From a virus (Duplodnaviria; Heunggongvirae; Uroviricota; Caudoviricetes): 12,167 nt of DNA. Positions 1-11,297 of the stretch are shown in pieces. The notes under the pieces were generated by a model. It searched no databases. It was not told where the DNA came from and saw only the letters and a program-made list of their open reading frames with translations. The position numbers and the translations under genes are program-made. Where the stretch lies: positions 1 to 12,167 of the IMG/VR virus record IMGVR_UViG_2617270997_000007; one strand, given 5' to 3'. Within the stretch, counting starts at the first letter, position 1. Each line of letters starts with the position of its first letter.

Positions 1-31
1 GGTAAATCTTTAAATTCCATCGTCAACCTCA

Positions 32-184
32 TCAGTCGGAGTTTCTTGCTAACCAGCGACGCGCGCCAGCTTCGGTTTTAAACGTTTTGCTTTTGGTATA
101 TGTCATGGCGGTGAATGTGCCGTCCTGGTTGGGGAACACACCACATACCAGAGATTCGCTGTTGCCAAGATCGATAGTATCCAT
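32..184 (-). CDS. Small hypothetical protein (50 aa) downstream of the repressor gene, at the position lambda uses for rex-type accessory genes
   Basis: The track ORF 32..289 begins with TTG and has no Shine-Dalgarno. The in-frame ATG at 184 is preceded on the - strand by GAGG with about 6 nt spacing, giving MDTIDLGNSESLVCGVFPNQDGTF... The longer TTG form cannot be excluded. Confidence 0.35.
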   Translation of the reverse strand: MDTIDLGNSESLVCGVFPNQDGTFTAMTYTKSKTFKTEAGARRWLARNSD

Positions 185-373
185 GCTGACCTCATTACCC
201 CTTAACGCCGGGTAGCGGAACTGTTTGCTGAGAACACCGTGCGGTGTCTTGATGGGTGGTAATTTAGTTTTATCATGAATGTTGGTCAAGCATTTTTAAT
301 GAGAAAACTCAATATTTAATGCAAAATAAAGCCAATACATTGAAATGTAAGGCTTTAAAATTTGTGAAGGGGG

Positions 374-781
374 TTACTGATGTTTGTTACGTTTGCGAGC
401 TTCTAGTAGCTCGGTGAATAGGCGATTAAAATTCTCAACGCGGGCACGGAGTTCGCTGATTTGTGCTTGCTGCTCTGATTTTGGAAGTGCGCGATACAAT
501 CGCAACATCTCCAACTCATCTTCCGATAAGTCTAAGGCGCTGTTGAGTGCTACTGGTGGATCTGGTGTTTTATCCTCGTCACCAAACAGTATCCAAGTTG
601 GTGAACATTGCAATACCTCAGCCAGGCGATGCAAATTTTGCCCGCGCGGGGCTGTATGGTCGCTTTCCCATAGTGAAATTGATGAGCCAGATACGCCAGC
701 GGCTTTGCTTAAATCGTTTTGACTTAAACCAACCTGTTTGCGTCTTTCTCTAATTCGTTGACCTAAAGTTTTCTCGTTCAT
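374..781 (-). CDS. dicA: HTH (XRE-family) prophage repressor, DicA-like, 135 aa, no peptidase S24 domain
   Basis: Complete ORF, MNEKTLGQRIRERRKQVGLSQNDLSKAAG... with the motif LQCSPTWILFGDEDK that I recall from E. coli DicA (also 135 aa). Divergent from a Cro-like gene. Too short to carry a LexA-like autocleavage domain. Confidence 0.8.
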   Translation of the reverse strand: MNEKTLGQRIRERRKQVGLSQNDLSKAAGVSGSSISLWESDHTAPRGQNLHRLAEVLQCSPTWILFGDEDKTPDPPVALNSALDLSEDELEMLRLYRALPKSEQQAQISELRARVENFNRLFTELLEARKRNKHQ

Positions 782-858
782 ATTTAGATATCTTAATAAC
801 CCTTGACTTGAGATTCCTTGAATGATTACTATTGAGAAAACTCAACTTTGGAGGGGTG
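782..858. promoter_or_regulatory. Divergent promoter/operator region between the repressor and Cro-like genes
   Basis: 77-bp intergenic spacer between divergent start codons. TTGACT at 803-808, an 18-bp spacer, then TACTAT at 827-832 could drive the Cro-like gene. GGAGGGG at 850-856 is its ribosome-binding site. Operator half-sites were not resolved by eye. Confidence 0.45.
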
Positions 859-1086
859 ATGTTTAAATCAGACGTAATTAATTTTTATGGGACGAAAGCC
901 AAAGTAGCGAAAGCTGCTGGTGTTGATCCATCTGCTGTTTCTCAATGGGGGGAACTGGTTCCTGAAGGTCGCGCGATGCGCCTGCAAGAGGCATCCGGCG
1001 GGGAACTTCAGTACGACCCCAAAGTTTATGACGAATATCGTAAGGCAAAGCGGGCGGGGCGGTTGAACAATGAAAATCACCCCTGA
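859..1086 (+). CDS. dicC: Cro/DicC-like small DNA-binding protein (75 aa)
   Basis: ATG 859 preceded by GGAGGGG; the track ORF starts further upstream at a TTG (832). Small basic protein divergent from the DicA-like repressor, the classic cro position. Sequence MFKSDVINFYGTKAKVAKAAGVDPSAVSQWGELVPEGRAMRLQEASGGELQYDPKVY... The symbol is from memory of DicC and is not verified. Confidence 0.55.
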   Translation: MFKSDVINFYGTKAKVAKAAGVDPSAVSQWGELVPEGRAMRLQEASGGELQYDPKVYDEYRKAKRAGRLNNENHP

Positions 1087-1621
1087 ACAGGTTTGTGAGG
1101 CTCTGGATGCCTGGGTATGTCGACCAGGAATGACACAGGAGCAAGCGACGATATTAATCACGGAAGCATTCTGGGCTCTGAAAGAACGCCCGAACATCGA
1201 TGTTCAACGCGTCACGTTTAATGATGGCGAGGTTGATCAACGGGCGCTGGGCGTTAACCGGGTGAAGATATTCGAACGCTGGAAAGCTATCGACACCAGG
1301 GATAAGCGGAAAAAATTCACGGCGCTGATTCCGGCAATTATGGAGGCTATCCGAATTAGTGATTTCAGGTTGTATCGTGAGATCAGTGATGGAAAAAGCA
1401 TTACGTACATGATCGCCGGATTAAACAAAGAATATGGCGATGTGGTGGAGTCCGGGCTGCTTTTTGCGGATCCAGCTGTTGTGGAACGTGAGACTGACGA
1501 GCTTATAGAAAAAGCTATTGCTTTCAAGCATGCGTATCGTCAGCAATATCAATATTACTTTGCAGATAAACAAATGTCTGCCAGGGGTTTGTATGAGTAT
1601 CGATGCACTACGATGGGCTAA
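1070..1621 (+). CDS. YdaT-like / CII-position early regulatory protein (183 aa)
   Basis: Complete ORF immediately after the Cro-like gene, overlapping its end by 17 nt. Lambda cII and Rac ydaT occupy this position. The family assignment rests on position and memory, not on a search. Confidence 0.45.
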   Translation: MKITPEQVCEALDAWVCRPGMTQEQATILITEAFWALKERPNIDVQRVTFNDGEVDQRALGVNRVKIFERWKAIDTRDKRKKFTALIPAIMEAIRISDFRLYREISDGKSITYMIAGLNKEYGDVVESGLLFADPAVVERETDELIEKAIAFKHAYRQQYQYYFADKQMSARGLYEYRCTTMG

Positions 1622-2633
1622 AAAGGTGAAAACCGGCAGTTCATCCAGTAAGTCTGTATTGACCTGGCTTGCTGATATGTGCGGTGCCGATTTGTGTGCA
1701 TACCCGTCTGTATCTGCACTGGCAGAAGTAACGGAACTAAACAAAAAGACTGTGCAGGACAGCTTACGACACCTGATGGAGATTGGGTTAATTGTTGATA
1801 CCGGTGAGAGAAAAGGCAGAACAAAGCAAATTGTGGTGTACCGACTTATCGGTGTAGAAGAAAGTGTTGCCGAGCCTGAATACACCCAAAAACGGGAGTC
1901 TTTAAAGGTGGGTAAAATTGGTGCTGTTAATAAAAACAGTACCGAAAATGGTTATGTTTCAGCACAAAACAGACCCAAAAACGGAACTCTTAGCTGCATG
2001 GAAAATAACCAAAGACACCCAAATTTTCCATCAAAGACACCCAAAAACGGATCACGGAACCCAAAGGAACCCAAAGATCTAAACCCCACACATAACGCAC
2101 GCGAGAGTGCTCCGACCAGTGAGCAGGAAGTTTTGTCGTTACAGGCAGCACCCCTTGTATTCCTGGATGGCCTGAGCGAACCCATCGGAAAATTACCGAT
2201 GACCGATAGCTGGTATCCGTCACGGGATTTTCGACGACGGGCTGCGTTGTGGGGGATGGCTTTGCCGGAGACAGAATTTACACCTGCTGAACTTGCCGCC
2301 TTCCGGGACTACTGGGCAGCGGAGGGGAAAGTGTTTACGCAGATTCAGTGGGAGCAGAAATTCGCCCGTCACGTAAATCACGTCAGGGCGCAGGTTAAAC
2401 CAGTCAGCAAGGGGGTAAACCATGCAGCAGCACCAGGTGGCACCGCATCACGGGCAGTTCAGGAAATTCGGGCAGCACGTGAGCAGTGGGAACGTGAAAA
2501 CGGATTTATCAGCGACGGAAACGGTCTGGAAGCTGTGGGAACTCATGGGGGAGGTTTATTCGAACCGCTGGACCCAGAAGAACGGGGCCGCACCTTCGAA
2601 GCTCTGGATTGCACAGATTGGCGCGATGACTGA
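1593..2633 (+). CDS. Phage replication initiation protein (O-like): N-terminal HTH/winged-helix domain, low-complexity linker, C-terminal domain
   Basis: ATG 1593 (MSIDALRWAKK...) chosen over the longer track start at 1518. N-terminus has an HTH-like segment (SVSALAEVTELNKKTVQDSLRHLMEIGLI). The linker is encoded by iteron-like DNA repeats. It lies immediately upstream of a lambda-P-like gene. Confidence 0.6.
   Translation: MSIDALRWAKKVKTGSSSSKSVLTWLADMCGADLCAYPSVSALAEVTELNKKTVQDSLRHLMEIGLIVDTGERKGRTKQIVVYRLIGVEESVAEPEYTQKRESLKVGKIGAVNKNSTENGYVSAQNRPKNGTLSCMENNQRHPNFPSKTPKNGSRNPKEPKDLNPTHNARESAPTSEQEVLSLQAAPLVFLDGLSEPIGKLPMTDSWYPSRDFRRRAALWGMALPETEFTPAELAAFRDYWAAEGKVFTQIQWEQKFARHVNHVRAQVKPVSKGVNHAAAPGGTASRAVQEIRAAREQWERENGFISDGNGLEAVGTHGGGLFEPLDPEERGRTFEALDCTDWRDD
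1966..2078. repeat. Iteron-like direct repeats with an adjacent AT-rich tract inside the O-like gene (candidate replication origin)
   Basis: The 13-mer acccaaaaacgga occurs at 1973-1985 and 2039-2051; caaagacacccaaa at 2010-2023 and 2032-2045; ggaacccaaa in tandem at 2056-2065 and 2066-2075. An AT-rich stretch lies just upstream (1921-1972). Confidence 0.4.
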
Positions 2634-3087
2634 GCAGCAAATCCGACAGGTCTGCCGCCAGTGCATGGACCGCTGCCGGGCGGGTGAAACATGGCCTCCG
2701 GACCTGGCTGAGTTTGTGGCGCTGATTTCAGAAAGCGGGGCCAATCCATTTGGCCTGACGGTGGATGCTGTGATGGAGGAGTACCGCCGCTGGCGTGATG
2801 AGTCCTGGCGATATGACGGAAGCGACAAATATCCGTGGCCTCAGCCTGTGCTGTACCACATCTGCCTCGAAATGCGTACCAGAGGGATTGAGCGCCAGAT
2901 GACGCAGGGTGAGTTAAAACGACTTGCGGAACGGCAACTGACGAAATGGGCAAAGCATGTTGGTAACGGGATGAGTGTTCCGCCAGTGCGACGACAACTG
3001 GAAGGGGCGAAACACCCGCAAGGGCCAACGCCAATTGAACGGCTGAAACAGGAATACGAACGCCGGAAGGCAGCTGGTTTTATTTGA
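2422..3087 (+). CDS. Replication protein P-like (DnaB helicase loader), 221 aa
   Basis: C-terminal two-thirds aligns by eye with lambda P as I remember it: PPDLAEFVALISE to PSPGQFVAWCREE, and YDGSDKYPWPQPVLYHIC...GELKRLAERQL to YPDAESYPWKSNAHYWLV...AELRRKAADEL. ATG 2422 has a strong AGGGGG site 7 nt upstream. Alternative starts are 2545 and 2626 (ATGACTGA overlapping the O-like stop). Confidence 0.7.
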   Translation: MQQHQVAPHHGQFRKFGQHVSSGNVKTDLSATETVWKLWELMGEVYSNRWTQKNGAAPSKLWIAQIGAMTEQQIRQVCRQCMDRCRAGETWPPDLAEFVALISESGANPFGLTVDAVMEEYRRWRDESWRYDGSDKYPWPQPVLYHICLEMRTRGIERQMTQGELKRLAERQLTKWAKHVGNGMSVPPVRRQLEGAKHPQGPTPIERLKQEYERRKAAGFI

Positions 3088-3120
3088 ATCTGAGAAACGA
3101 TTTTGTCGGAGGAAATTTTA

Positions 3121-3891
3121 ATGGAAACCGTATTTGACGCACTGAAAGCAATGGGAAAAGCCACATCGGTAGAACTGGCCGCGCGACTTGATATCAGTCG
3201 TGAAGAGGTTCTCAACGAGCTGTGGGAACTCAAAAGAAATGACGTCGTTGATAAAACTGGTCACACCTGGTTTCTGGCTGGCGAAGGTGAATCCCGGGTA
3301 ACCGAAGAGCGGCCAGTAAAATCTGAAGCACAGGATATGCTGACCGGAGAGGTCGAACAAAAAGTTACCGCAGACATGATGATTGAGTTTATCGGTCAGG
3401 ATGGTGCTAAAACGTGTGAGGAACTGGCGGGTAAGTTCGGCGTCAGTACTCGCAAGGTTGCCTCCACGCTGGCGGTGGTAACCGCAATGGGGCGGCTGGC
3501 ACGCGTTAATCAGAACGGTAAATTTCGTTACTGCATGCCGGGCGATAATTTACCAGCAGAGCCGAAAGCCGCGCTGGTAACGGAAAGTGATGGTAAGGCC
3601 TTTCCTCAGCCAGCAGGTGCTGCGTTACCAGTCCGGGAAGCCGCAACACAGGAAGAAATTAAAACAGAAACTGTGGCGGACATTGTGCAGCCGTTGCCAT
3701 CGTTTACCGAAACGCAAGCAGATGAGCTGATTTTTCCGTCCCTTCGCAGGGCAAACCTGGCGCTGCGCAGGGCGAAAAGTGATGTTCAGAAGTGGGAGCG
3801 AGTCTGCGCCGCGCTGCGGGAGCTGAACAAGCACCGGGATATTGTTCGACAGATTACTGATTCTTCCCGCCGTGTTGTATCGGAAAAGTGA
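3121..3891 (+). CDS. Hypothetical protein with two winged-helix-like segments (256 aa)
   Basis: ATG 3121 with GGAGG 8 nt upstream; the track ORF starts at TTG 3103. Two HTH-like stretches: [26 protein letters not shown] and [31 protein letters not shown]. First gene of a coupled operon. Confidence 0.6.
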
Positions 3892-3906
3892 TTGCCGGAG
3901 GCGCTT

Positions 3907-4299
3907 ATGGCAAAAGTATTTACACCAGAAGAGCGGGAAGAAGTGAAGGCGCGCATTGTGGAATTCGTGCGCCTGAGCGGACGAGAAACTTTTCGACAAC
4001 TGGCAGATAAAACGGGTGTCAGTAAGACCGCTATTCGTCGTTTATCTGGTGCGCTTGCGGCCAGTGGTGATGTCTGGCTCTCTGGTTGCGGGGTATTTCC
4101 ATCAGAGCAGGCGTATCGCGTATGGCGTAAGACACCGGAGAAGGCTGCTGACCCGACACTGATTCGAAAGTTACCTGACGGAGAAATACGTCGTTACAAC
4201 AGACGGCAGAACATAATTTTTCGTGAGTGCCGCCAGAGCGAAGTTATGCAGCGTGTGCTGGCGTTCTATCGGGGAAACTTTCAGGAGGTGATGGAGTGA
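3907..4299 (+). CDS. Hypothetical protein with an HTH-like segment (130 aa)
   Basis: ATG 3907 with GGAGG 5 nt upstream; the track ORF starts at TTG 3892. Contains FRQLADKTGVSKTAIRRL. Its stop TGA 4297-4299 overlaps the next gene's GTG start. Confidence 0.55.
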   Translation: MAKVFTPEEREEVKARIVEFVRLSGRETFRQLADKTGVSKTAIRRLSGALAASGDVWLSGCGVFPSEQAYRVWRKTPEKAADPTLIRKLPDGEIRRYNRRQNIIFRECRQSEVMQRVLAFYRGNFQEVME

Positions 4300-4592
4300 G
4301 GGTCAGAGTTTATATTGCCGGTCCAATGACGGGATATGAAAATTTCAACCGTGAGGCGTTTCACAAGGCGGAAGAGGAACTGAAACGGGAAGGGCATACC
4401 GTCTTAAACCCGGCAGTACTTCCGGACGGGCTGACACAGCCGCACTACATGGATATTTGCATGGCAATGATTCGTTGTGTGGATGCGATTTACATGCTGA
4501 ATGGCTGGCAGCGGTCAGCGGGCGCTAAGGCAGAGCTGGCACTGGCGGAGAAACTGGGGCATGCAGTGATTTATCAGGAGGTGGCTCAATGA
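4296..4592 (+). CDS. DUF4406 / nucleoside 2-deoxyribosyltransferase-like small protein (98 aa)
   Basis: GTG 4296 with AGGAGG 7 nt upstream and a GTGA start/stop overlap. Motif VYIAGPMTGYENFN, then a conserved acidic region, as in the deoxyribosyltransferase/Rcl-like fold. Assignment is from motif memory. Confidence 0.55.
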   Translation: MRVRVYIAGPMTGYENFNREAFHKAEEELKREGHTVLNPAVLPDGLTQPHYMDICMAMIRCVDAIYMLNGWQRSAGAKAELALAEKLGHAVIYQEVAQ

Positions 4593-5056
4593 GAGAGGTT
4601 AACTATGAGGCGCTTCGTGAGGCAGCACAAAACTATCAGTCGACGCTGGCGTGGTATCAGGCTATCCCGGACAGCCCAAATGCTGAACGGGATTGTGATG
4701 CGGCTCTTGCTGCATTTAAGCGTCACATCCGTCATCGGGAAGCGGATATTATCGCTGATTTGCTGGATGGACTGGAAGAAGCAAAATCACAACTCAAAGA
4801 GCAGCGTGAGTATTACGAAGGCGTTATCTCTGATGGGAGCAAGCGTATTGCTGAACTGGAAGCGCGGGAAGTTCAATTACCGACTCGCTACGACCTTCGA
4901 TATGGACACCCGATAAATGCAGATGAGCGACATGTCATGATACCTAAAGAAAATGGCAGTTGGCTTTACCTGATTGACCTAGAACACGCATTACGCGTCT
5001 CTGGCATTCGCATCAAAGGAGAGGAGCATGGAAATAAAACCCAGAGGATGAGTTAA
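4589..5056 (+). CDS. Hypothetical phage protein with a predicted coiled-coil region (155 aa)
   Basis: ATG 4589 overlaps the upstream stop (ATGA), with GGAGG upstream. No recognisable catalytic motif. Confidence 0.6.
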   Translation: MREVNYEALREAAQNYQSTLAWYQAIPDSPNAERDCDAALAAFKRHIRHREADIIADLLDGLEEAKSQLKEQREYYEGVISDGSKRIAELEAREVQLPTRYDLRYGHPINADERHVMIPKENGSWLYLIDLEHALRVSGIRIKGEEHGNKTQRMS

Positions 5057-5086
5057 GCAATATCGTTTTATTTCCGGTAAAAGAGG

Positions 5087-5385
5087 ATGACCCTCGTAAT
5101 CAGGTTAATTTTCTTTATGAGCCATCGGAAAGACCATATTGTCATCACGCCTCTGTCCGGGTTGACGAAAAAGAGCGTCAGGTCCGCTGTAAAATCTGCG
5201 GTGCAGTTGTGGAGCCATTTGACTGGATGCTCTCTGTGGCGAAAAGAGAAACCAGACTGGCAGATGATGTAAGGCACTTGCGCCAGGAGGAGCGGGAAAG
5301 GCGAAAAAATATAGAAAAGCTAATTCAGATTGAGCGTAACGCGAAAGCGCGGATACGCAGGGCGACAAAATCCAGAACTGAATAA
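5087..5385 (+). pseudogene. Zinc-ribbon/coiled-coil ORF with a disrupted start: open frame 5038-5385 has no ATG/GTG/TTG before 5209. Possible frameshift at the T-run 5109-5116 or non-canonical initiation
   Basis: Frame-1 translation is protein-like over about 115 codons: ...NQVNFLYEPSERPYCHHASVRVDEKERQVRCKICGAVVEPFDWMLSVAKRETRLADDVRHLRQEERERRKNIEKLIQIERNAKARIRRATKSRTE*. It fills an otherwise empty 420-bp gap in a tightly packed operon. The only upstream ATG (5087) is in another frame. Confidence 0.3.
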
Positions 5386-5454
5386 TTAAATTTAGCTCTG
5401 TTAAAAATTTAATCCTTAACCGGAGGGATTTCTGCACCCTCAGAACATCAGGAG

Positions 5455-5472
5455 GCCGCCCGAAAGGGCGGT
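5455..5472 (+). promoter_or_regulatory. GC-rich hairpin with GAAA loop between the Shine-Dalgarno AGGAGG (5450-5455) and the ATG at 5479
   Basis: Stem ccgccc (5456-5461), loop gaaa, stem gggcgg (5466-5471), plus a possible G-U closing pair 5455/5472. No U-tract follows, so it is not a typical terminator. Folding would bring the SD from 23 nt to about 7 nt from the start codon. Confidence 0.35.
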
Positions 5473-5478
5473 AGTTAA

Positions 5479-5661
5479 ATGCGAAAGTTTAAAATAATTA
5501 TTGAAACGGGAATAGCCGGTGGAGATTTCGAGGATGAATTCGAAGTGGATGATGATGCGACGCCTGATGAAATACATGACGAAGCAAAAGATATTTTCTT
5601 TAACTACTGCAATTACTCATATCACGAAATAAAAGACGAAGAGGAAGAGCAAAATGGCTGA
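5479..5661 (+). CDS. Small, highly acidic protein (60 aa)
   Basis: MRKFKIIIETGIAGGDFEDEFEVDDDATPDEIHDEAKDIFFNYCNYSYHEIKDEEEEQNG: about 40% Asp/Glu. Complete ORF in the coupled operon. Confidence 0.55.
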   Translation: MRKFKIIIETGIAGGDFEDEFEVDDDATPDEIHDEAKDIFFNYCNYSYHEIKDEEEEQNG

Positions 5662-5830
5662 TTTTGGTTCAACTAAATACAACGTCAGTTTTGAAGCATG
5701 GCATGAACTGTTAATGGACTATGCAGAGTTACGTGGTGGCAGTGCTGCTGATGCTGAAGCATGGCGTGATGATTATGAAGCAGGAAAAACTCCGGTCGAA
5801 GCATATTGTGATGAGTGGGGCGATGAATGA
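5654..5830 (+). CDS. Small acidic protein (58 aa), not in the supplied ORF track
   Basis: ATG 5654 with GAGGAAG 6 nt upstream, overlapping the previous stop. Translation MADFGSTKYNVSFEAWHELLMDYAELRGGSAADAEAWRDDYEAGKTPVEAYCDEWGDE*. Its stop TGA 5828-5830 overlaps the next ATG at 5827 (ATGA). Confidence 0.45.
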   Translation: MADFGSTKYNVSFEAWHELLMDYAELRGGSAADAEAWRDDYEAGKTPVEAYCDEWGDE

Positions 5831-6342
5831 GCGAGATTAATTATCAGGAAGGGCATGAAACGGCAGGGCAGGCAAAACCAGTTGCATGGCGATATCGCTA
5901 CGTGAAAAAAGACGTTACAGACTTTCAGGGGAAGCCGTGGGCTGGTGACTGGAAATATGTACCGACAAAAGAGGATTGTAACGACAGGCCGAACTATGAA
6001 ATTCAGGCCTTATTCATCGGCCCGCCAGTCCCGGTGACATCAGAAGGACTGGTTAAAGCCGTGCGCTTTTATGAACAGGTAAAGCGTGAGAATCCGCCAG
6101 TCGAAACAGGAGCATGGAAGGATGCTGTTGACTGGGTGCTCAGAGAGGCCTGCTGCGCTGCCATTCTGGGTAAAGCCGACAATCCACCAGCATCCGGCAA
6201 TCAGGTTAGCGAATTAACAATGTGGGTTAAACGACTGGTCAGTCAACTGAAAAAAGCTCAGCCGGACTGCAAATTACCGGAGAAGGCGATGGATTACCTG
6301 AAACGAAATGGACTGATAAGCGTGGAGGATGTTTTACGATGA
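5827..6342 (+). CDS. Hypothetical phage protein (171 aa), last gene of the coupled operon
   Basis: Complete ORF with ATGA coupling to the upstream small ORF. No recognisable motif. Confidence 0.6.
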   Translation: MSEINYQEGHETAGQAKPVAWRYRYVKKDVTDFQGKPWAGDWKYVPTKEDCNDRPNYEIQALFIGPPVPVTSEGLVKAVRFYEQVKRENPPVETGAWKDAVDWVLREACCAAILGKADNPPASGNQVSELTMWVKRLVSQLKKAQPDCKLPEKAMDYLKRNGLISVEDVLR

Positions 6343-6462
6343 ATATTTAGACTAAAGAGTTTGTAACGCTATGTAAGTGATTTTTTCTGGTTTAGATATT
6401 TATATGTTCGGCCAAATTGAGGTGTGTTTAAATGTTATTGCACATTGATTGTAGGGGGAATA

Positions 6463-6642
6463 ATGAAAAACGCATTGCAGTTTTTGTTTGTTGCGTTCTG
6501 GTTGTTCGCATCATGTATGCCCATCATCTTCACAGCAAGGTATATGGAAAAAATTGATGTTTTGATATTAATGTTTGGACATATAAATGCCCTTTTTTTA
6601 GGGGTGTTCATGGCGGTCATGTGCATTGAATACTGGCGGTAA
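6463..6642 (+). CDS. Small hydrophobic membrane protein (59 aa, two predicted TM helices) in an AT-rich moron
   Basis: ATG 6463 with GGGGGA just upstream; the track ORF starts at GTG 6424. Sequence MKNALQFLFVAFWLFASCMPIIFTARYMEKIDVLILMFGHINALFLGVFMAVMCIEYWR. The surrounding region 6343-6660 is visibly AT-rich compared with its neighbours. Confidence 0.45.
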   Translation: MKNALQFLFVAFWLFASCMPIIFTARYMEKIDVLILMFGHINALFLGVFMAVMCIEYWR

Positions 6643-6784
6643 ATACAGCGAACGCCATTGGTTTAGTTGGATATTTACTGTGCCGGACAAAAACGGTTTG
6701 CGGGGAAATCTTAGTTAAGTAGAATAACTGCGGGTGCTTGAGGCTATCTGTCTCAGGCATGAACACCAAAAGGCAGATAGAGAA

Positions 6785-6851
6785 AAGCCCCAGTTAACAT
6801 TACGCGTCCTGCAAGACGCTTAACATTAATCTGAGGCCATATCTATGCGAC
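6785..6851 (-). ncRNA. sok: Sok-like antisense RNA of the hok locus (approximate position)
   Basis: Expected by analogy with hok/sok loci. A candidate - strand promoter has TTGACC (complement of 6882-6887), an 18-bp spacer and TAATCT (complement of 6858-6863), directing transcription leftward across the hok leader. The 3' end is not defined. Confidence 0.25.
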
Positions 6852-6904
6852 ACATAGAGATTAGCCTCTTACGGACCGAAAGGTCAAGGAGAAGCAGGCT
6901 ATGA
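6845..6904 (+). CDS. Mok-like short upstream ORF (19 codons) coupled to hok
   Basis: ATG 6845, translation MRHIEISLLRTERSRRSRL*, with stop TGA 6902-6904 overlapping the hok ATG (ATGA). Too short to judge on composition alone. Confidence 0.25.
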   Translation: MRHIEISLLRTERSRRSRL

Positions 6905-7056
6905 AGCAGCAAAAGGCGATGTTAATCGCCCTGATCGTCATCTGTTTAACCGTCATAGTGACGGCACTGGTAACGAGGAAAGACCTCTGCGAGGTACGAA
7001 TCCGAACCGGCCAGACGGAGGTCGCTGTCTTCACAGCTTACGAACCTGAGGAGTAA
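6901..7056 (+). CDS. hokD: Hok/Gef-family type I toxin (51 aa), HokD/RelF-like
   Basis: Translation MKQQKAMLIALIVICLTVIVTALVTRKDLCEVRIRTGQTEVAVFTAYEPEE*, which matches Hok-family toxins and, as far as I recall, E. coli HokD closely. AAGGAG lies 9 nt upstream. Absent from the ORF track because it is under 60 aa. Confidence 0.85.
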   Translation: MKQQKAMLIALIVICLTVIVTALVTRKDLCEVRIRTGQTEVAVFTAYEPEE

Positions 7057-7126
7057 GAGACCCGGCGAGGGAGAAATCCCTCGCCACCTCTGATGTGGCA
7101 GGCATTCTCAACGCACCCGCACTTAA

Positions 7127-7150
7127 CCCGCTTCGGCGGGTTTTTGTTTT
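7127..7150 (+). terminator. Rho-independent terminator at the 3' end of the hok transcript
   Basis: Stem cccgc / loop ttcg / stem gcggg followed by tttttgttttt. A separate perfect 9-bp hairpin (ggcgaggga-gaaa-tccctcgcc, 7064-7085) lies just after the hok stop and may be the 3' fold-back element of hok mRNA. Confidence 0.75.
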
Positions 7151-7272
7151 TATTTTCAACGCATTTGAAGTTCTGGACGGTGCCGGAATAGAATCAAAAA
7201 TACTTAAGTAGCGCGCAGGGATAAGAGGGATGGTCCCTTAAAGGGGAGAGCTAATTATCCGGAAGGATTCTG

Positions 7273-7524
7273 ATGATGAACATCGAAGAACTGCGTAAAA
7301 TTTTTTGTGAAGATGGCCTCTATGCTGTGTGCGTTGAAAATGGAAATATTGTTAGTCATTACCGCATTGTGTGTTTGCAAAAAAATGGGGCTGCGTTAAT
7401 TAATTTTGTGGATGCCCGAGTGACGGACGGATTTATCTTGCGCGACGGTGAGTTTGTCACTTCATTACAGGTATTGAAAGAGATCGGAATAAAAGCTGGC
7501 TTTTCTGCTTTTTCAGAAGAATAA
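7273..7524 (+). CDS. rem: Rem-like small protein (83 aa)
   Basis: Complete ORF with GGAAGGA 5 nt upstream of ATGATG. Same size and position (between hok and the DUF968 gene) as rem in the K-12 Qin prophage. Symbol is from synteny and size, not sequence recall. Confidence 0.4.
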   Translation: MMNIEELRKIFCEDGLYAVCVENGNIVSHYRIVCLQKNGAALINFVDARVTDGFILRDGEFVTSLQVLKEIGIKAGFSAFSEE

Positions 7525-7590
7525 ACTCATCTACAATCTTGCGCGGGGCTGAACTCCCGCTGAGTAACACCGTGCCACCGGAGAAAACCG

Positions 7591-7869
7591 ATGGCACGCA
7601 ACGCAAAATATTACAAACATGATAATTCGACCGTTCTTGCCCACACGCACGAGCGGTATTCTCACGCATTTAAGTCAGACTGGTACCAGCATCCCCCATG
7701 CACTGAAGAACAGGCCGAATGGCTCATTCAGTGTTACCGCAGGCGCGGATGCGAGGTTAAAAAAGCCCTTAGCCTCGACTACCGTCACTGGATAATCTCC
7801 GTCAGGCTTCCTTACTCCGAACGCCCACCGCGTCTGTCCCGCACATTCCAGCAACGCATCTGGAGGTAA
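7591..7869 (+). CDS. Hypothetical phage protein (92 aa)
   Basis: Complete ORF with GGAG 8 nt upstream. Its stop lies 1 nt before the GTG start of the DUF968 gene. Confidence 0.55.
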   Translation: MARNAKYYKHDNSTVLAHTHERYSHAFKSDWYQHPPCTEEQAEWLIQCYRRRGCEVKKALSLDYRHWIISVRLPYSERPPRLSRTFQQRIWR

Positions 7870-7870
7870 C

Positions 7871-8917
7871 GTGCGGGTATTACTTCGACCTGTTCTGGTA
7901 CCGGAACTCGGGCTGGTGATCGTTAAGCCGGGCCGTGAATCCATGCCGGTATTCCACAATACCCGGGTACTGGTGGAGCCGGAACCGAAAAGCATGCGTA
8001 ATCTGCCGTCCGGGGTCGTTCCTGCCGTTCGCCAGCCGCTGGCGGAGGATAAATCATTACTGCCATTTTTCAGCGACGAACGAGTGATTCGTGCTGCTGG
8101 TGGCGCTGGCGCATTGTCTGACTGGTTACTGCGCCATGTTAAATCCTGCCAGTGGCCACACGGCGATTATCACCACAGTGAAACCGTCATTCACCGTTAT
8201 GGTACCGGCGCAATGGTGTTGTGCTGGCACTGCGACAACCAGCTGCGCGACCAGACCTCCGAATCACTCGGGCAACTTGCTCACCAAAACCTGTCTGCAT
8301 GGATGATTGACGTCATACGCCATGCAATGAATGGCTCGCAGGAACGGGAATTATCGCTGGCTGAATTATCCTGGTGGGCGGTCCGCAATCAGGTGGCGGA
8401 CGCGCTACCGGAAGCGGTATTACGTCGTTCGCTGGGGTTGCGTGCGGAAAAAATCCGCTCAATGTACCGTGAAAGCGACATCGTACCGGGAGAGCAGACC
8501 GCCACCAGCATACTGAAGCAGCGCACAAAAAATCTTGCGCCGCTGCCTCACGCCCACCAGCAAAACCCGCCACAGGAAGAGACGGTGGTCAGCATTGCCG
8601 TTGATCCTGAGTCTCCGGAATCTTTCATGAAACGACCTAAACGTCGCCGCTGGGTTAACGAGAAATACACACGCTGGGTGAAGACACAGCCGTGTGCGTG
8701 TTGTGGTAAGCCAGCCGACGATCCCCATCACCTGATTGGTCATGGTCAGGGCGGAATGGGGACAAAATCTCACGATATTTTCACGCTACCGCTGTGTCGG
8801 GAGCATCACAACGAGCTTCATGCGGATCCTCTGGCGTTCGAAGAAAAGCATGGTTCTCAGGTTGATTTAATTTTTCGTTTTCTTGATCACGCCTTTGCAA
8901 CTGGCGTGCTTGGGTAA
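7871..8917 (+). CDS. ydfU: DUF968-family protein (YdfU-like, 348 aa) with a C-terminal HNH-like zinc-finger motif
   Basis: GTG 7871 with GGAGG upstream. C-terminus CACCGKPADDPHHLIGHGQGGMGTKSHDIFTLPLCREHHNELH has the CxxC...HH...H...C..HH..H pattern of HNH nucleases. Size and position match Qin YdfU from memory. Confidence 0.6.
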   Translation: MRVLLRPVLVPELGLVIVKPGRESMPVFHNTRVLVEPEPKSMRNLPSGVVPAVRQPLAEDKSLLPFFSDERVIRAAGGAGALSDWLLRHVKSCQWPHGDYHHSETVIHRYGTGAMVLCWHCDNQLRDQTSESLGQLAHQNLSAWMIDVIRHAMNGSQERELSLAELSWWAVRNQVADALPEAVLRRSLGLRAEKIRSMYRESDIVPGEQTATSILKQRTKNLAPLPHAHQQNPPQEETVVSIAVDPESPESFMKRPKRRRWVNEKYTRWVKTQPCACCGKPADDPHHLIGHGQGGMGTKSHDIFTLPLCREHHNELHADPLAFEEKHGSQVDLIFRFLDHAFATGVLG

Positions 8918-8929
8918 AAGAGGTGACTG

Positions 8930-9304
8930 ATGCTCATAGATTTGGTTTTACCTTACCCGCCGACGGTGAACACTTACTGGCGACGCCGTGGCAGCACATA
9001 TTTTATCTCGGAGGAGGGAAAGCGTTATCGCCGGGCTGTGGCGCTTATTGTTTGCCAGCAGCGGCTGAAATTAAGCCTGTCCGGAAGGCTGGCGATAAAG
9101 GTGATTGCAGAGCCACCGGATAAGCGTCGTCGCGACCTGGACAATATCCTGAAAGCACCGCTGGATGCGCTGACGCATGCGGGAGTGTTAATGGACGATG
9201 AGCAGTTTGATGAAATCAATATCGTTCGTGGTCAGCCAGTATCTGGTGGACGTCTGGGGGTGAAGATTTACCCCATAATGCATGAAGAGCAGGTCAAAAA
9301 ATGA
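8930..9304 (+). CDS. rusA: RusA crossover-junction endodeoxyribonuclease (Holliday junction resolvase), 124 aa
   Basis: Motifs PYPPTVNTYWRRRG, RRRDLDNILKAPLDALT and MDDEQ line up with the RusA signature (WPPSNNRYY, RRRDLDN, DD.Q). AGAGGTGA upstream. Confidence 0.85.
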   Translation: MLIDLVLPYPPTVNTYWRRRGSTYFISEEGKRYRRAVALIVCQQRLKLSLSGRLAIKVIAEPPDKRRRDLDNILKAPLDALTHAGVLMDDEQFDEINIVRGQPVSGGRLGVKIYPIMHEEQVKK

Positions 9305-10122
9305 AACTGGAAGATTTACCGAAATACTACTCCCCAAAATCCCCTGGCCTGACCGATGCATCGGCCTCAACGTCAAAAGATGCGCTGAGTATCACTGATG
9401 TGATGGCCGCGCAGGGCATGACACAGAATCGGGCTGAGATGGGTTTTTCTGCGTTCCTGGGGAAAATGGGCATCAGTATGAATGACAGGGTGCGGGCAAC
9501 AGAATTACTGGCAGATTATGCACTCAGTCGGTGCGATCGTGTGGCGGCGTTGAGAAAACTTCCGGCAGAAATAAAACCGGTAGTGATGCGCATTATGGCT
9601 TCGTACGCTTTTGAGGATTATGCCCGCAGCGCAGCGAGTAAAAAGCAGTGCCCTTGTTGCTATGGGGAAAAATTTATTGAAAGCATAGTTTTTACAAACA
9701 AGGTCCAGTATCCGGATGGTAAGCCGCCGGTATGGGCAAAGTGTACGAAAGGTGTGTATCCGTCTTACTGGGAAGAATGGAAAAAAGTCAGGGAGGTGGT
9801 AAAAGTTGCCTGTCCGGAGTGTGGCGGAAAGGGTGAGGTTTCCACCGCCTGTAAGGATTGCCGTGGGCGTGGTGTCGCCATTCACCGTGAAGAGTCGGTA
9901 AAACGTGGTATGCCTGTTATCAGAGACTGCCAGCGTTGTGGTGGTCGTGGCTATGAAAGACTACCATCAACGGAGGCATTTAATGCTATATGCGAGGTGA
10001 CAAACCAGATAACACGCGCGTCATGGGAAAAAACAGTTAAGAAATTCTATGATGCGCTGGTGACCCGGTTTGATATTGAAGAAGCATGGGCTGAGCGGCA
10101 GTTAAAAAAGGTAACTAGGTAA
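9301..10122 (+). CDS. Late-gene antitermination protein Q-like (273 aa) with CxxC zinc fingers
   Basis: ATG 9301 overlaps the rusA stop (ATGA). Cys-rich C-terminal region CPECGGKGEVSTACKDCRGRG...CQRCGGRGY. Sits directly upstream of a lambda-type PR', the canonical Q position. Confidence 0.6.
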   Translation: MKLEDLPKYYSPKSPGLTDASASTSKDALSITDVMAAQGMTQNRAEMGFSAFLGKMGISMNDRVRATELLADYALSRCDRVAALRKLPAEIKPVVMRIMASYAFEDYARSAASKKQCPCCYGEKFIESIVFTNKVQYPDGKPPVWAKCTKGVYPSYWEEWKKVREVVKVACPECGGKGEVSTACKDCRGRGVAIHREESVKRGMPVIRDCQRCGGRGYERLPSTEAFNAICEVTNQITRASWEKTVKKFYDALVTRFDIEEAWAERQLKKVTR

Positions 10123-10128
10123 CAAGGT

Positions 10129-10156
10129 TGATTTTTCCGGAATCTGTGGTAAATTC
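10129..10156 (+). promoter_or_regulatory. Late promoter PR' (lambda-type), with the downstream pause-region motif
   Basis: -35 TTGATT (10129-10134), 16-bp spacer containing TGg, -10 TAAATT (10151-10156), then cgtcataacgATGGG. Lambda PR' as I recall it is TTGACT ... TAAATT tgactcaacgATGGG, so the -10 and the aacgATGGG block are shared. Confidence 0.6.
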
Positions 10157-10204
10157 GTCATAACGATGGGCCTTTTATGCCTGACGTTAGAAGAGTTTCT
10201 ACAA

Positions 10205-10229
10205 CCCGCCGCCGAGCGGGTTTTTTATT
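10205..10229 (+). terminator. Rho-independent terminator about 50-65 nt downstream of PR' (tR'-like)
   Basis: Stem cccgc (10206-10210), loop cgccga, stem gcggg (10217-10221), then tttttt. Confidence 0.6.
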
Positions 10230-10264: not shown

Positions 10265-10340
10265 CGGCCCTTTAGCTCAGTGGTGAGAGCGAGCGACTCA
10301 TAATCGCCAGGTCGCTGGTTCAAATCCAGCAAGGGCCACC
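10265..10340 (+). tRNA. ileZ: tRNA-Ile2 (anticodon CAU, lysidine type; formally also readable as Met), 76 nt with encoded CCA
   Basis: Cloverleaf folded by hand: acceptor ggccctt/aagggcc, D-stem gctc/gagc, anticodon loop ctCATaa, T-arm gctgg-ttcaaat-ccagc, discriminator A, CCA. Near-identical to E. coli ileX as recalled. Confidence 0.85.
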
Positions 10341-10347
10341 ATCACAT

Positions 10348-10424
10348 ACCGCCATTAGCTCATCAGGAAAGAGCGCCAGCCTTCGAAGCTGGTTGCGCGG
10401 AGTTCGGGTCCCCGAAGGCGGTCC
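10348..10424 (+). tRNA. argN: tRNA-Arg (anticodon UCG), 77 nt, with non-canonical features
   Basis: Anticodon arm ccagc-ctTCGaa-gctgg is perfect and D-stem gctc/gagc is good. The acceptor stem has one A-A mismatch at pair 6, the T-stem has one A-C mismatch, and the T-loop is ttcgggt (G where the conserved A58 is expected). CCA is encoded. Confidence 0.6.
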
Positions 10425-10437
10425 ATTATCTGTATCC

Positions 10438-10514
10438 TGCGTTGTTAGCTCAGCCGGACAGAGCAATTGCCTTCTAAGCAATCGGTCACTGGTTCGAATC
10501 CAGTACAACGCGCC
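10438..10514 (+). tRNA. argO: tRNA-Arg (anticodon UCU), 77 nt with encoded CCA
   Basis: Clean cloverleaf: acceptor gcgttgt/acaacgc, D-stem gctc/gagc, anticodon arm attgc-ctTCTaa-gcaat, T-arm actgg-ttcgaat-ccagt, discriminator G, CCA. Confidence 0.85.
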
Positions 10515-10529
10515 ACACTTATTTTCCCT

Positions 10530-10557: not shown

Positions 10558-10770
10558 TGTCTCACAATTCAGGCGGTTGACTGTTGTCTGGTTTGCGGGG
10601 AGTTTGTTAAAAGAAACTGGCATGGTGAATCCCCCTGTGCGGAGGGGCAATCAGCGAGTAGGTATATGGGATAATCGCGGATTCAGGTGCTGGTACTGAA
10701 TTCACCGGGAGGCACCCGGCACCATGCAATGGCACATAGCGCCACTCTCCAGCCCCTCTCCGGAGGGGCT
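10558..10770 (+). repeat. Structured repeat module A: promoter-like -35, two conserved GC hairpins and a terminal terminator hairpin (candidate small RNA or leader cassette)
   Basis: Shares ordered blocks with module B: ctcacaattcag; TTGACT (10574-10579); tttgttaaaa; hairpin cccct-gtgcgg-agggg (10629-10644); hairpin ccggg-aggca-cccgg (10702-10716) followed by ATG; terminator gcccctc-tccg-gaggggc (10749-10766) plus tttt. Confidence 0.6.
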
Positions 10771-10964
10771 TTTCTGTGCCGGATACATCACAGTTTCTGG
10801 AACCTTAGGTACTACAGTATCAGTCAGGGTGCTATATTTTCAGATGTGATGAAAGCCTGTCAGCAGGCAGGGCGTATCGGAAATGACCCAGTAGAGAAAA
10901 CGTTGACTCAGATACCGGTGCTGAGTTACCGGGAAACCGGCATCACATGACCGCTATCCTTCCA

Positions 10965-11028: not shown

Positions 11029-11262
11029 CTCACAATTCAGTAAGTTGACAGTTGCCTGTCAGACTGGGCATTTGTTAAAAAAATTTCGCATGGTGAATCC
11101 CCCTGAGCGGAGGGGCGACTGGTGACGGTATAATCTCTGATTATCAAAACGAGAATGACGCGGGTTTAGTGGCACCGGGCTGAACTCACCGGGAGGCACC
11201 CGGCACCATGTGCATGATGATACAGATACGCGGCTTTAGCCCCTCTCCGGAGGGGCTTTCTT
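11029..11262 (+). repeat. Structured repeat module B, paralogous to module A
   Basis: Same blocks in the same order: ctcacaattcag (11029-11040); TTGACA (11045-11050); tttgttaaaa; hairpin ccccctgagcggagggg; a TATAAT at 11129-11134; caccgggaggcacccggcaccATG; terminator gcccctc-tccg-gaggggc (11239-11256) plus T-tract. It has about 20 bp of insertion relative to A. Confidence 0.6.
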
Positions 11263-11267
11263 ATGGA

Positions 11268-11297
11268 CAAAAAAAGCCCGCGCTGGGAGACGCGGGC
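11268..11297 (-). terminator. Minus-strand intrinsic terminator immediately after module B
   Basis: On the + strand an A7 tract (11269-11275) precedes the hairpin gcccgcg-ctgggaga-cgcgggc (11276-11297). Read on the - strand this is hairpin plus U-tract. No convincing - strand gene lies upstream of it. Confidence 0.4.

Follow-up and report, generated by a model that had tools for sequence, protein, structure and literature searches.

The closely related hokW-sokW cassette, which likewise sits in a lambdoid prophage (the Stx2 prophage Sp5, or 933W, of Escherichia coli O157:H7), is experimentally a type I toxin–antitoxin pair, in which sokW counteracts the toxicity of HokW. Takada et al. found that a promoter-less sokW construct lost protection against HokW. 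On treatment with mitomycin C, sokW is lost and HokW is induced in a RecA-dependent manner, and deleting hokW-sokW halves phage release, a two-fold effect. HokW is 44% identical to the Hok protein of plasmid R1, as reported, and the R1 hok/mok/sok locus (parB) has a proven plasmid-stabilizing role. In R1, 19 mok codons lie ahead of the hok start, and premature stops among them abolish Hok; mok translation is needed up to the hok Shine-Dalgarno (SD) sequence and start but is dispensable past the hok start. The last stem-loop of the truncated R1 hok mRNA protects it from 3′ exonucleases. In E. coli K-12, the family includes hokC (gef)/mokC/sokC and, in the Qin cryptic prophage, hokD (relF). More broadly, an enrichment of hok genes in prophages, of about four-fold, has been reported, and representative Hok homologues are reported to be toxic whatever their location.

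The DNA analyzed here, a 12,167-nucleotide stretch of viral sequence (the window), very probably contains an intact hok/mok/sok type I toxin–antitoxin locus of the hokD/hokW kind, in identity as well as in molecular mechanism. A cassette of the hokD type is already known and ordinary, being common to most E. coli genomes. The initial annotation had proposed a Hok/Sok-type locus embedded in a prophage at 6660–7160, and three independent profile searches agreed with that proposal, two of them on the toxin (Pfam and PHROG) and one on the leader RNA (Rfam RF01794). An identical locus elsewhere carries the RefSeq name “hokD,” and every named regulatory element could be located in the window. The cassette does lie within the proposed interval, but its conserved part is slightly narrower, at about 6708–7150. 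By analogy with the experimentally studied homologue hokW-sokW, the toxin would be active and an antisense transcript would be made. The toxin gene and the motifs nearest to it are the following.

6901–7056, plus strand: hok toxin gene, encoding 51 aa (MKQQKAMLIALIVICLTVIVTALVTRKDLCEVRIRTGQTEVAVFTAYEPEE); assigned by Pfam, PHROG, and the RefSeq HokD accession
6886–6891, plus strand: hok SD, AAGGAG, recognized from the sequence; nearly invariant in relatives, its opposite strand overlapping the sok −35 box
7039–7042, plus strand: TACG motif at the hok Tyr47 codon, of the type reported as a TadA A-to-I editing site (Tyr to Cys)

This 51-aa frame was said to have been missed by the open reading frame (ORF) track, and a listing with a minimum length of 20 aa (min_aa 20) indeed recovered it on the plus strand; its absence from the track may reflect the default cut-off of 60 aa. 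The encoded protein matches Pfam HOK_GEF (PF01848) over the entire profile (positions 1–42 of 42; E = 1.2e-23; 82.9 bits vs. a cut-off of 22) and PHROG 251, “MokW-like host killing” (2.8e-33). RefSeq HokD, WP_000813254.1, is the protein both at the 100%-identical locus of E. coli AR_0013 and at hokD of a K-12-like strain. The NCBIfam HMMs for the Hok family and for HokA score the window protein below their cut-offs, and the name HokD, therefore, rests on sequence identity. Matches to Hok-family proteins of plasmids are ∼43% identical. Across at least 80 phage contigs, the Hok protein is identical despite DNA substitutions inside the coding region. In the K-12 hokD mRNA, editing to Cys by TadA has been reported at the Tyr corresponding to Tyr47 (PMC5630033). 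Folding around the TACG motif in the window gave no local hairpin above background (z = −0.5). A 57-aa ORF on the minus strand (6861–7034) runs antisense to hok.

The cassette was compared with K-12 hokD. The two loci encode the same toxin accession and have the same downstream neighbors (rem, a small hypothetical gene, and a DUF968/ydfU gene), and from 6887 onward their DNA is 99.3% identical. Upstream of that point, they part. K-12-like hokD retains only the hok SD part (from 6887), the ORF, and the 3′ region, and relB-relE replaces everything before them; lost there are tac, ucb, mok, the predicted hok promoter, and the larger part of the predicted sok, a set that the window carries in full.

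The leader that K-12 hokD lacks can be placed among hok loci through other relatives, since it aligns with K-12-type hokC/mokC, with the mok/hok region of phage Rac, and with the Rfam model at full length, the reverse of the outcome that the initial annotation had named as refuting its proposal. Its core is 83% identical to that of K-12 hokC, with tac, ucb, the mok SD and ATG, and the hok SD in common. In contrast to the window cassette, the hokC locus is chromosomal, with an adjoining IS element (IS186/IS421 family) and a different 3′ UTR; mokC is in frame with hokC and shares its stop codon, which is not so for the window mok; and the predicted Sok hairpin of the window is longer than that of hokC-type loci by ∼18 nucleotides. 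With hokW-sokW the leader agrees at nearly every base: in our alignment A2, relatives are matched by primers YO-351, YO-421/422, and YO-592, and the predicted sok promoter and Sok target lie at the same positions. The two differ in the toxin’s C terminus (…VAVFVDYESEK in HokW vs. …VAVFTAYEPEE in the window protein), in the sequence of the Sok 5′-tail region, and in mok, which has 70 codons in frame with hok in the hokW-type leader and 19 codons in the window. Plasmid R1 shares with the window the tac/fbi and ucb/dcb elements, the GAGG mok SD, an antisense Sok (predicted in the window) that covers the start of mok, and the number of mok codons (19) before the hok start. However, R1 mok is reported to be 70 aa long and to overlap the hok coding sequence, whereas the window mok stops at the hok start, and the R1 locus is plasmid-borne, whereas the window cassette is in a prophage.

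The mok elements of the window are the following.

6845–6904, plus strand: mok leader ORF, short allele; 19 sense codons (MRHIEISLLRTERSRRSRL) followed by a TGA that overlaps the hok ATG
6833–6836, plus strand: mok SD, GAGG, 8 nt before the mok ATG; invariant in 68 sequences

A 19-codon upstream ORF with a stop overlapping the hok ATG had been noted initially, and it is present exactly in that form, with its ATG at 6845, its TGA at 6902–6904, and the hok ATG at 6901–6903 (ATGA). It runs across the hok SD as far as the hok ATG. We identify it as a mok homologue because its ATG and its GAGG are invariant in the 68 related sequences, a finding that also ruled out a chance ORF. The Mok-like coupling proposed for it is supported in that the short ORF is mok, but what the window carries is a frameshifted allele, not the usual form: relative to other loci, the window mok has a 2-nt deletion right after ATGC, which shifts the reading frame. 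Among 110 IMG/VR phage contigs, retrieved with the tac sequence, mok is in frame with hok and 70 codons long in 81, of the 19-codon window type in 12 (always with an intact hok), and in an R1-like overlapping frame (−58, 68 codons) in 7. In phage Rac (MN652886), too, mok overlaps in the R1-like frame and is 69 codons long. The window type occurs in 13 of the 84 loci with an identical Hok protein, a count that includes the window itself and locus L001. Among 5,426 complete E. coli genomes, its 70-nt mok region was found at ≥99% identity in 783 records (about 14%), always with an intact hok, and this number rules out a private mutation or a sequencing error.

An overlap of stop and start codons is the standard arrangement for translational coupling. 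By analogy with R1, the 19-codon allele should be functional, because mok translation is required there only as far as the hok start. The coexistence of three mok/hok frame relationships argues that the Mok peptide itself is without function and probably irrelevant.

On the opposite strand, a promoter and an antisense RNA can be predicted.

6858–6887, minus strand: predicted sok promoter, with −35 TTGACC (6887–6882), an 18-nt spacer, and −10 TAATCT (6863–6858), found by eye
6782–6851, minus strand: predicted Sok antisense RNA, ∼70 nt; 5′ end by homology with K-12 sokC

The candidate antisense promoter of the initial annotation fared unevenly: the arrangement TTGACC-18-TAATCT is visible by eye and plausible, but a consensus promoter scan reported no minus-strand promoter. 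In the alignment, the TAATCT box falls exactly on the TAGGTTA block replaced in the promoter-less sokW construct (primers YO-421/422), and the key positions of the sok −10 box (T6862 and A6858 on the plus strand) are invariant in all 68 relatives. In K-12, the annotated sokC starts 9 nt inside mokC; by alignment, the Sok 5′ end would fall at ∼6851 in the window, and transcription would run from 6851 to ∼6782. The sokW probe YO-592 spans the same stretch. The predicted RNA has a ∼13-nt single-stranded 5′ tail over the mok AUG and a long hairpin over the mok SD, ending in UUUUCUCU; it folds into the hairpin plus a U-tail at −33.8 kcal/mol (z = −5.5).

The hok mRNA and its structural elements were located as follows.

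6697–6725, plus strand: predicted hok promoter, with −10 TAGAAT (6720–6725) and a weak −35, TTTGCG/TTGCGG (∼6697–6703)
6732–7146, plus strand: predicted full-length hok mRNA; 5′ end predicted, 3′ end at the terminator
6732–6743, plus strand: tac element (GGGUGCUUGAGG) at the mRNA 5′ end; pairs with 7106–7118 in the minimum-energy fold
6787–6793, plus strand: ucb/anti-SD, GCCCCAG; pairs with the mok SD GAGG in the closed form (folds)
6864–6868, plus strand: dcb-like box, GCCUC; potential partner of the mok SD when the leader is open (constrained fold)
7064–7085, plus strand: 3′ hairpin after the hok stop, 9 bp, GC-rich, GAAA loop
7106–7118, plus strand: fbi element (UCUCAACGCACCC); pairs with tac (helix 1)
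7125–7150, plus strand: intrinsic terminator, with a 7-bp stem (7125–7142), a UUCG loop, and a U-run

The TAGAAT box is nearly invariant in the 68 relatives. The consensus scan of the window did not flag the hok promoter, whose −35 is weak, and the hok and sok promoters are, therefore, predicted ones, placed by homology and reported by the scan in neither case. Upstream of ∼6708, the sequence differs between phages, and we take this position as the rough left edge of the cassette for that reason. Rfam RF01794 (hok/sok) matches 6732–6903 on the plus strand over its full length (model positions 1–157 of 157; 106.7 bits vs. a gathering score of 59). Because this match begins 7 nt after the TAGAAT box, the hok transcript probably starts at ∼6730–6732. 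The Rfam family is labeled “sok,” yet what it matches here is the hok-sense strand, up to the hok AUG.

The full-length mRNA folds at −166.7 kcal/mol (z = −8.1 vs. shuffles) with its 5′ and 3′ ends paired. The tac-fbi helix has 12 pairs in the minimum-energy fold, corresponds to inverted repeat I2, and is 99.3% paired in relatives; covariation among the 68 relatives was absent from this helix, where both arms are invariant and the test is, thus, uninformative. When the window fold was mapped onto the 68 distinct related cassettes, 97.4% of cells were paired, and 14 pairs had compensatory double changes vs. 2.9 in shuffles and 3–7 in slid controls. The perfect 9-bp hairpin that had been noted just after the hok stop was recovered (GGCGAGGGA/TCCCTCGCC at 7064–7072/7077–7085; −19.7 kcal/mol, z = −5.4), and one of its pairs (helix 16) appears as A-U, G-U, and G-C across relatives. 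By analogy with R1, it is probably the protective 3′ end of a processed, translatable mRNA. The terminator, too, was found by the scan as the stem plus a T-run, with a fold z of −3.9 and four pairs with compensatory changes in relatives (helix 17).

We examined the energetics of leader opening in these folds. Enforcing tac-ucb pairing costs 14.6 kcal/mol in the full-length mRNA and 4.6 once the 3′ end is removed, and under this constraint the mok SD shifts onto the GCCUC box, matching the published open form of R1. The unconstrained minimum-energy fold of the 3′-shortened mRNA stayed closed and did not reproduce the published refolding. Opening of the leader after 3′ trimming is, in these models, consistent with the published scheme, although thermodynamics alone does not reproduce the switch.

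The elements of the cassette are seen in the sequence; how they would work over time we infer from R1 hok/sok and Sp5 hokW-sokW. The weak TAGAAT promoter would give a stable mRNA of ∼415 nt in which tac pairs with fbi and the anti-SD box covers the mok ribosome-binding site, and this full-length form would be neither translated nor bound by Sok. Slow trimming of the 3′ end back to the 9-bp hairpin would remove fbi and open the leader. Short-lived Sok of ∼70 nt, transcribed from the promoter inside mok, would then pair with the mok start region, block mok translation, and mark the duplex for cleavage. Since hok would have no independent ribosome access, it would be translated only along with mok; in this allele, ribosomes would cross the hok SD within the 19 mok codons, stop at the UGA of the AUGA overlap, and restart on hok. 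Once the supply of Sok ends, Hok would be made and inserted into the inner membrane, leading to depolarization or cell death.

The prophage context proposed by the initial annotation was borne out. Over positions 1–10228, the window is 99% identical to a lambdoid prophage that E. coli AR_0013 carries and that has genes for cI/Cro, replication, RusA, and Q, and the 501-nt segment that contains the cassette is 100% identical to the AR_0013 chromosomal locus, where the matched feature is annotated “hokD.” The cassette lies among the early-right genes, with the replication genes on one side and Q on the other. In the AR_0013 prophage, the cI/Cro-type regulators, the replication genes, a DUF968/HNH-like gene, RusA, and the Q-type antiterminator are on the same strand as hok, and the cassette and its neighbors have a common orientation in all phage loci examined. 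DNA resembling the segment was found in 4,938 of 5,426 complete E. coli genomes, at a median of two places per genome and at up to nine.

As for what the cassette does in this setting, we tentatively suggest, at somewhat short of even chances, a role at prophage induction: as for hokW-sokW, release of Hok would aid lysis and phage release. Against this role, phage release was shown for HokW, with its differing C terminus, and the effect was only two-fold. That the cassette can be recognized by its structure but no longer functions, as a chromosomal hok copy in decay whose 2-nt mok deletion may uncouple or weaken hok translation, seems to us very improbable. The five chromosomal hok loci of K-12 are, it is true, widely regarded as inactive; hokA, hokB, and hokC reportedly gave no postsegregational killing; and in the window, the sok and hok promoters are sub-consensus and mok departs from the majority in-frame 70-codon form. 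Yet all elements are intact and conserved, and the closely related hokW-sokW is active. The departure in mok would matter little if the R1 result holds here, where translating mok further than the hok start is dispensable, and the presence of the short allele in about 14% of complete E. coli genomes, although compatible with a dead copy, would not be expected of one. Nor would decay readily account for a Hok protein kept identical in at least 80 phage contigs despite substitutions in the coding DNA.

Two other roles, prophage retention and exclusion of other phages, are possible either as alternatives or in addition to a role at induction. In a defensive role, a lytic phage that halts host transcription would cause Sok to decay, and Hok would kill the cell early so that the infection aborts, protecting the lysogens and their prophage. 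The R1 hok/sok system reportedly cut the plating efficiency of T4 by 42% and shrank its plaques, but the plasmid was a high-copy one and the effect modest. The four-fold enrichment of hok in prophages, which often carry defense genes, would also fit, whereas hok genes are not enriched beside known defense systems and the effect measured for the prophage homologue is the phage’s own release; we consider defense unlikely. For retention by addiction, a cell freed of the prophage would be left with the stable hok mRNA but not with Sok and would die. Plasmid hok/sok classically works in this way, and prophage maintenance is among the known roles of toxin–antitoxin systems. However, the chromosomal hok loci tested reportedly gave no postsegregational killing, and prophage loss normally proceeds by excision or induction, an event that would in itself set off the system, so we regard addiction as distinctly unlikely.

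If the cassette acts at induction, antiterminated early-right transcription could read through it and occlude the convergent sok promoter. Such read-through is conceivable because the neighboring genes are co-oriented and the 1.3 kb upstream of the cassette has no terminator-like site. Collision between this transcription and sok might also be the cause of the unexplained RecA-dependent loss of sokW, but this is only an idea.

The most variable block of the cassette is 6838–6859, with 0.69 bits per column vs. 0.03–0.27 elsewhere and 17 haplotypes among 67 sequences (24 when a larger set was used). Within it fall the mok start and the single-stranded 5′ tail predicted for Sok. The simplest explanation of its variability is relaxed constraint. 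A more speculative reading of the sequences, which we think doubtful, is that the haplotypes define Sok specificity types, each prophage controlling only its own toxin. Co-resident cassettes, up to nine per genome, would then be without cross-protection, and the 19-codon mok allele would be one of the types. Among the IMG/VR loci, the Sok-tail haplotypes differed in three of four same-genome pairs and were the same in one, a sample that is far too small.

At the AR_0013 locus, RefSeq annotates only the hokD coding sequence, and mok, sok, and the structured mRNA features are absent; beyond correct annotation, the importance of the cassette is small. The window holds the complete ancestral form of the cassette, of which a stump next to relBE is all that K-12 keeps. 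In the short mok allele, the R1 mutagenesis result on mok translation up to the hok start has a natural counterpart. Sok-tail specificity types, if they are real, would be relevant to the way in which genomes rich in prophages keep toxin–antitoxin copies of the same family independent.

Directly downstream of the Q antiterminator gene lie three tRNA genes, and two tandem copies of the STnc100 sRNA family follow:

9301-10122, Q antiterminator gene
10266-10515, three tRNA genes (a Met-type with CAT anticodon, Arg-TCG, and Arg-TCT)
10591-10781 and 11059-11268, STnc100 family sRNA (RF02076), two tandem copies scoring 136 and 165 bits

The STnc100 copies sit in the late-promoter region, 3′ of the tRNA genes. 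Up to 10228, the window shares 99% identity with the E. coli AR_0013 prophage, whereas only patchy matches of 88-94% are found beyond. On sequence comparison, position 10228, right after the Q gene, is a mosaic junction.

On its upstream side, the hok cassette is adjoined by a short reading frame:

6463-6642, + strand, strongly hydrophobic ORF of 59 aa (MKNALQFLFVAFWLFASCMPIIF...), with Shine-Dalgarno GGGGGA

This ORF carries no annotation in the matching RefSeq record, and its product had no match in Pfam, PHROG, or NCBIfam. Counterparts with the same position and orientation and 93-100% amino-acid identity were present in 15 of 80 phage loci.

Within the cassette, the two ends of the hok mRNA are complementary over a longer stretch than its Rfam-defined 5′ end (6732) would allow. 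Positions 6725-6737 are 92% complementary to 7113-7125 (13 nt), and this complementarity reaches into the -10 region, 7 nt upstream of that end. Therefore, the transcript may start at 6730 instead of 6732, or the extended complementarity may be coincidental. Near the end of the hok coding sequence, we also located a motif associated with A-to-I editing by TadA:

7039-7042, TACG motif, formed by the hok Tyr47 codon TAC and the following G

Tyr-to-Cys editing has been reported for the Tyr47 position in the hokD mRNA of K-12 (PMC5630033). Local structure prediction around 7039-7042 gave no hairpin above background.

The hok cassette is highly conserved apart from one block, 6838-6859, where variability is greatest (0.69 bits per column, with 17-24 haplotypes). 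This block coincides with the neighborhood of the mok start codon as well as with the predicted start site and 5′ single-stranded tail of the candidate antisense RNA Sok. Its variability could mean that constraint is relaxed here or that the specificity of Sok has diversified. Comparison of mok in the window (6845-6904) with related phage loci (L006-L206) revealed that its frame relative to hok varies among prophage cassettes. An in-frame mok of 70 codons was found in 81 of 110 phage contigs, a 19-codon mok with stop-start overlap in 12/110, and a mok in an R1-like overlapping frame in 7/110. This variability in frame argues against a function of the Mok peptide in its own right.
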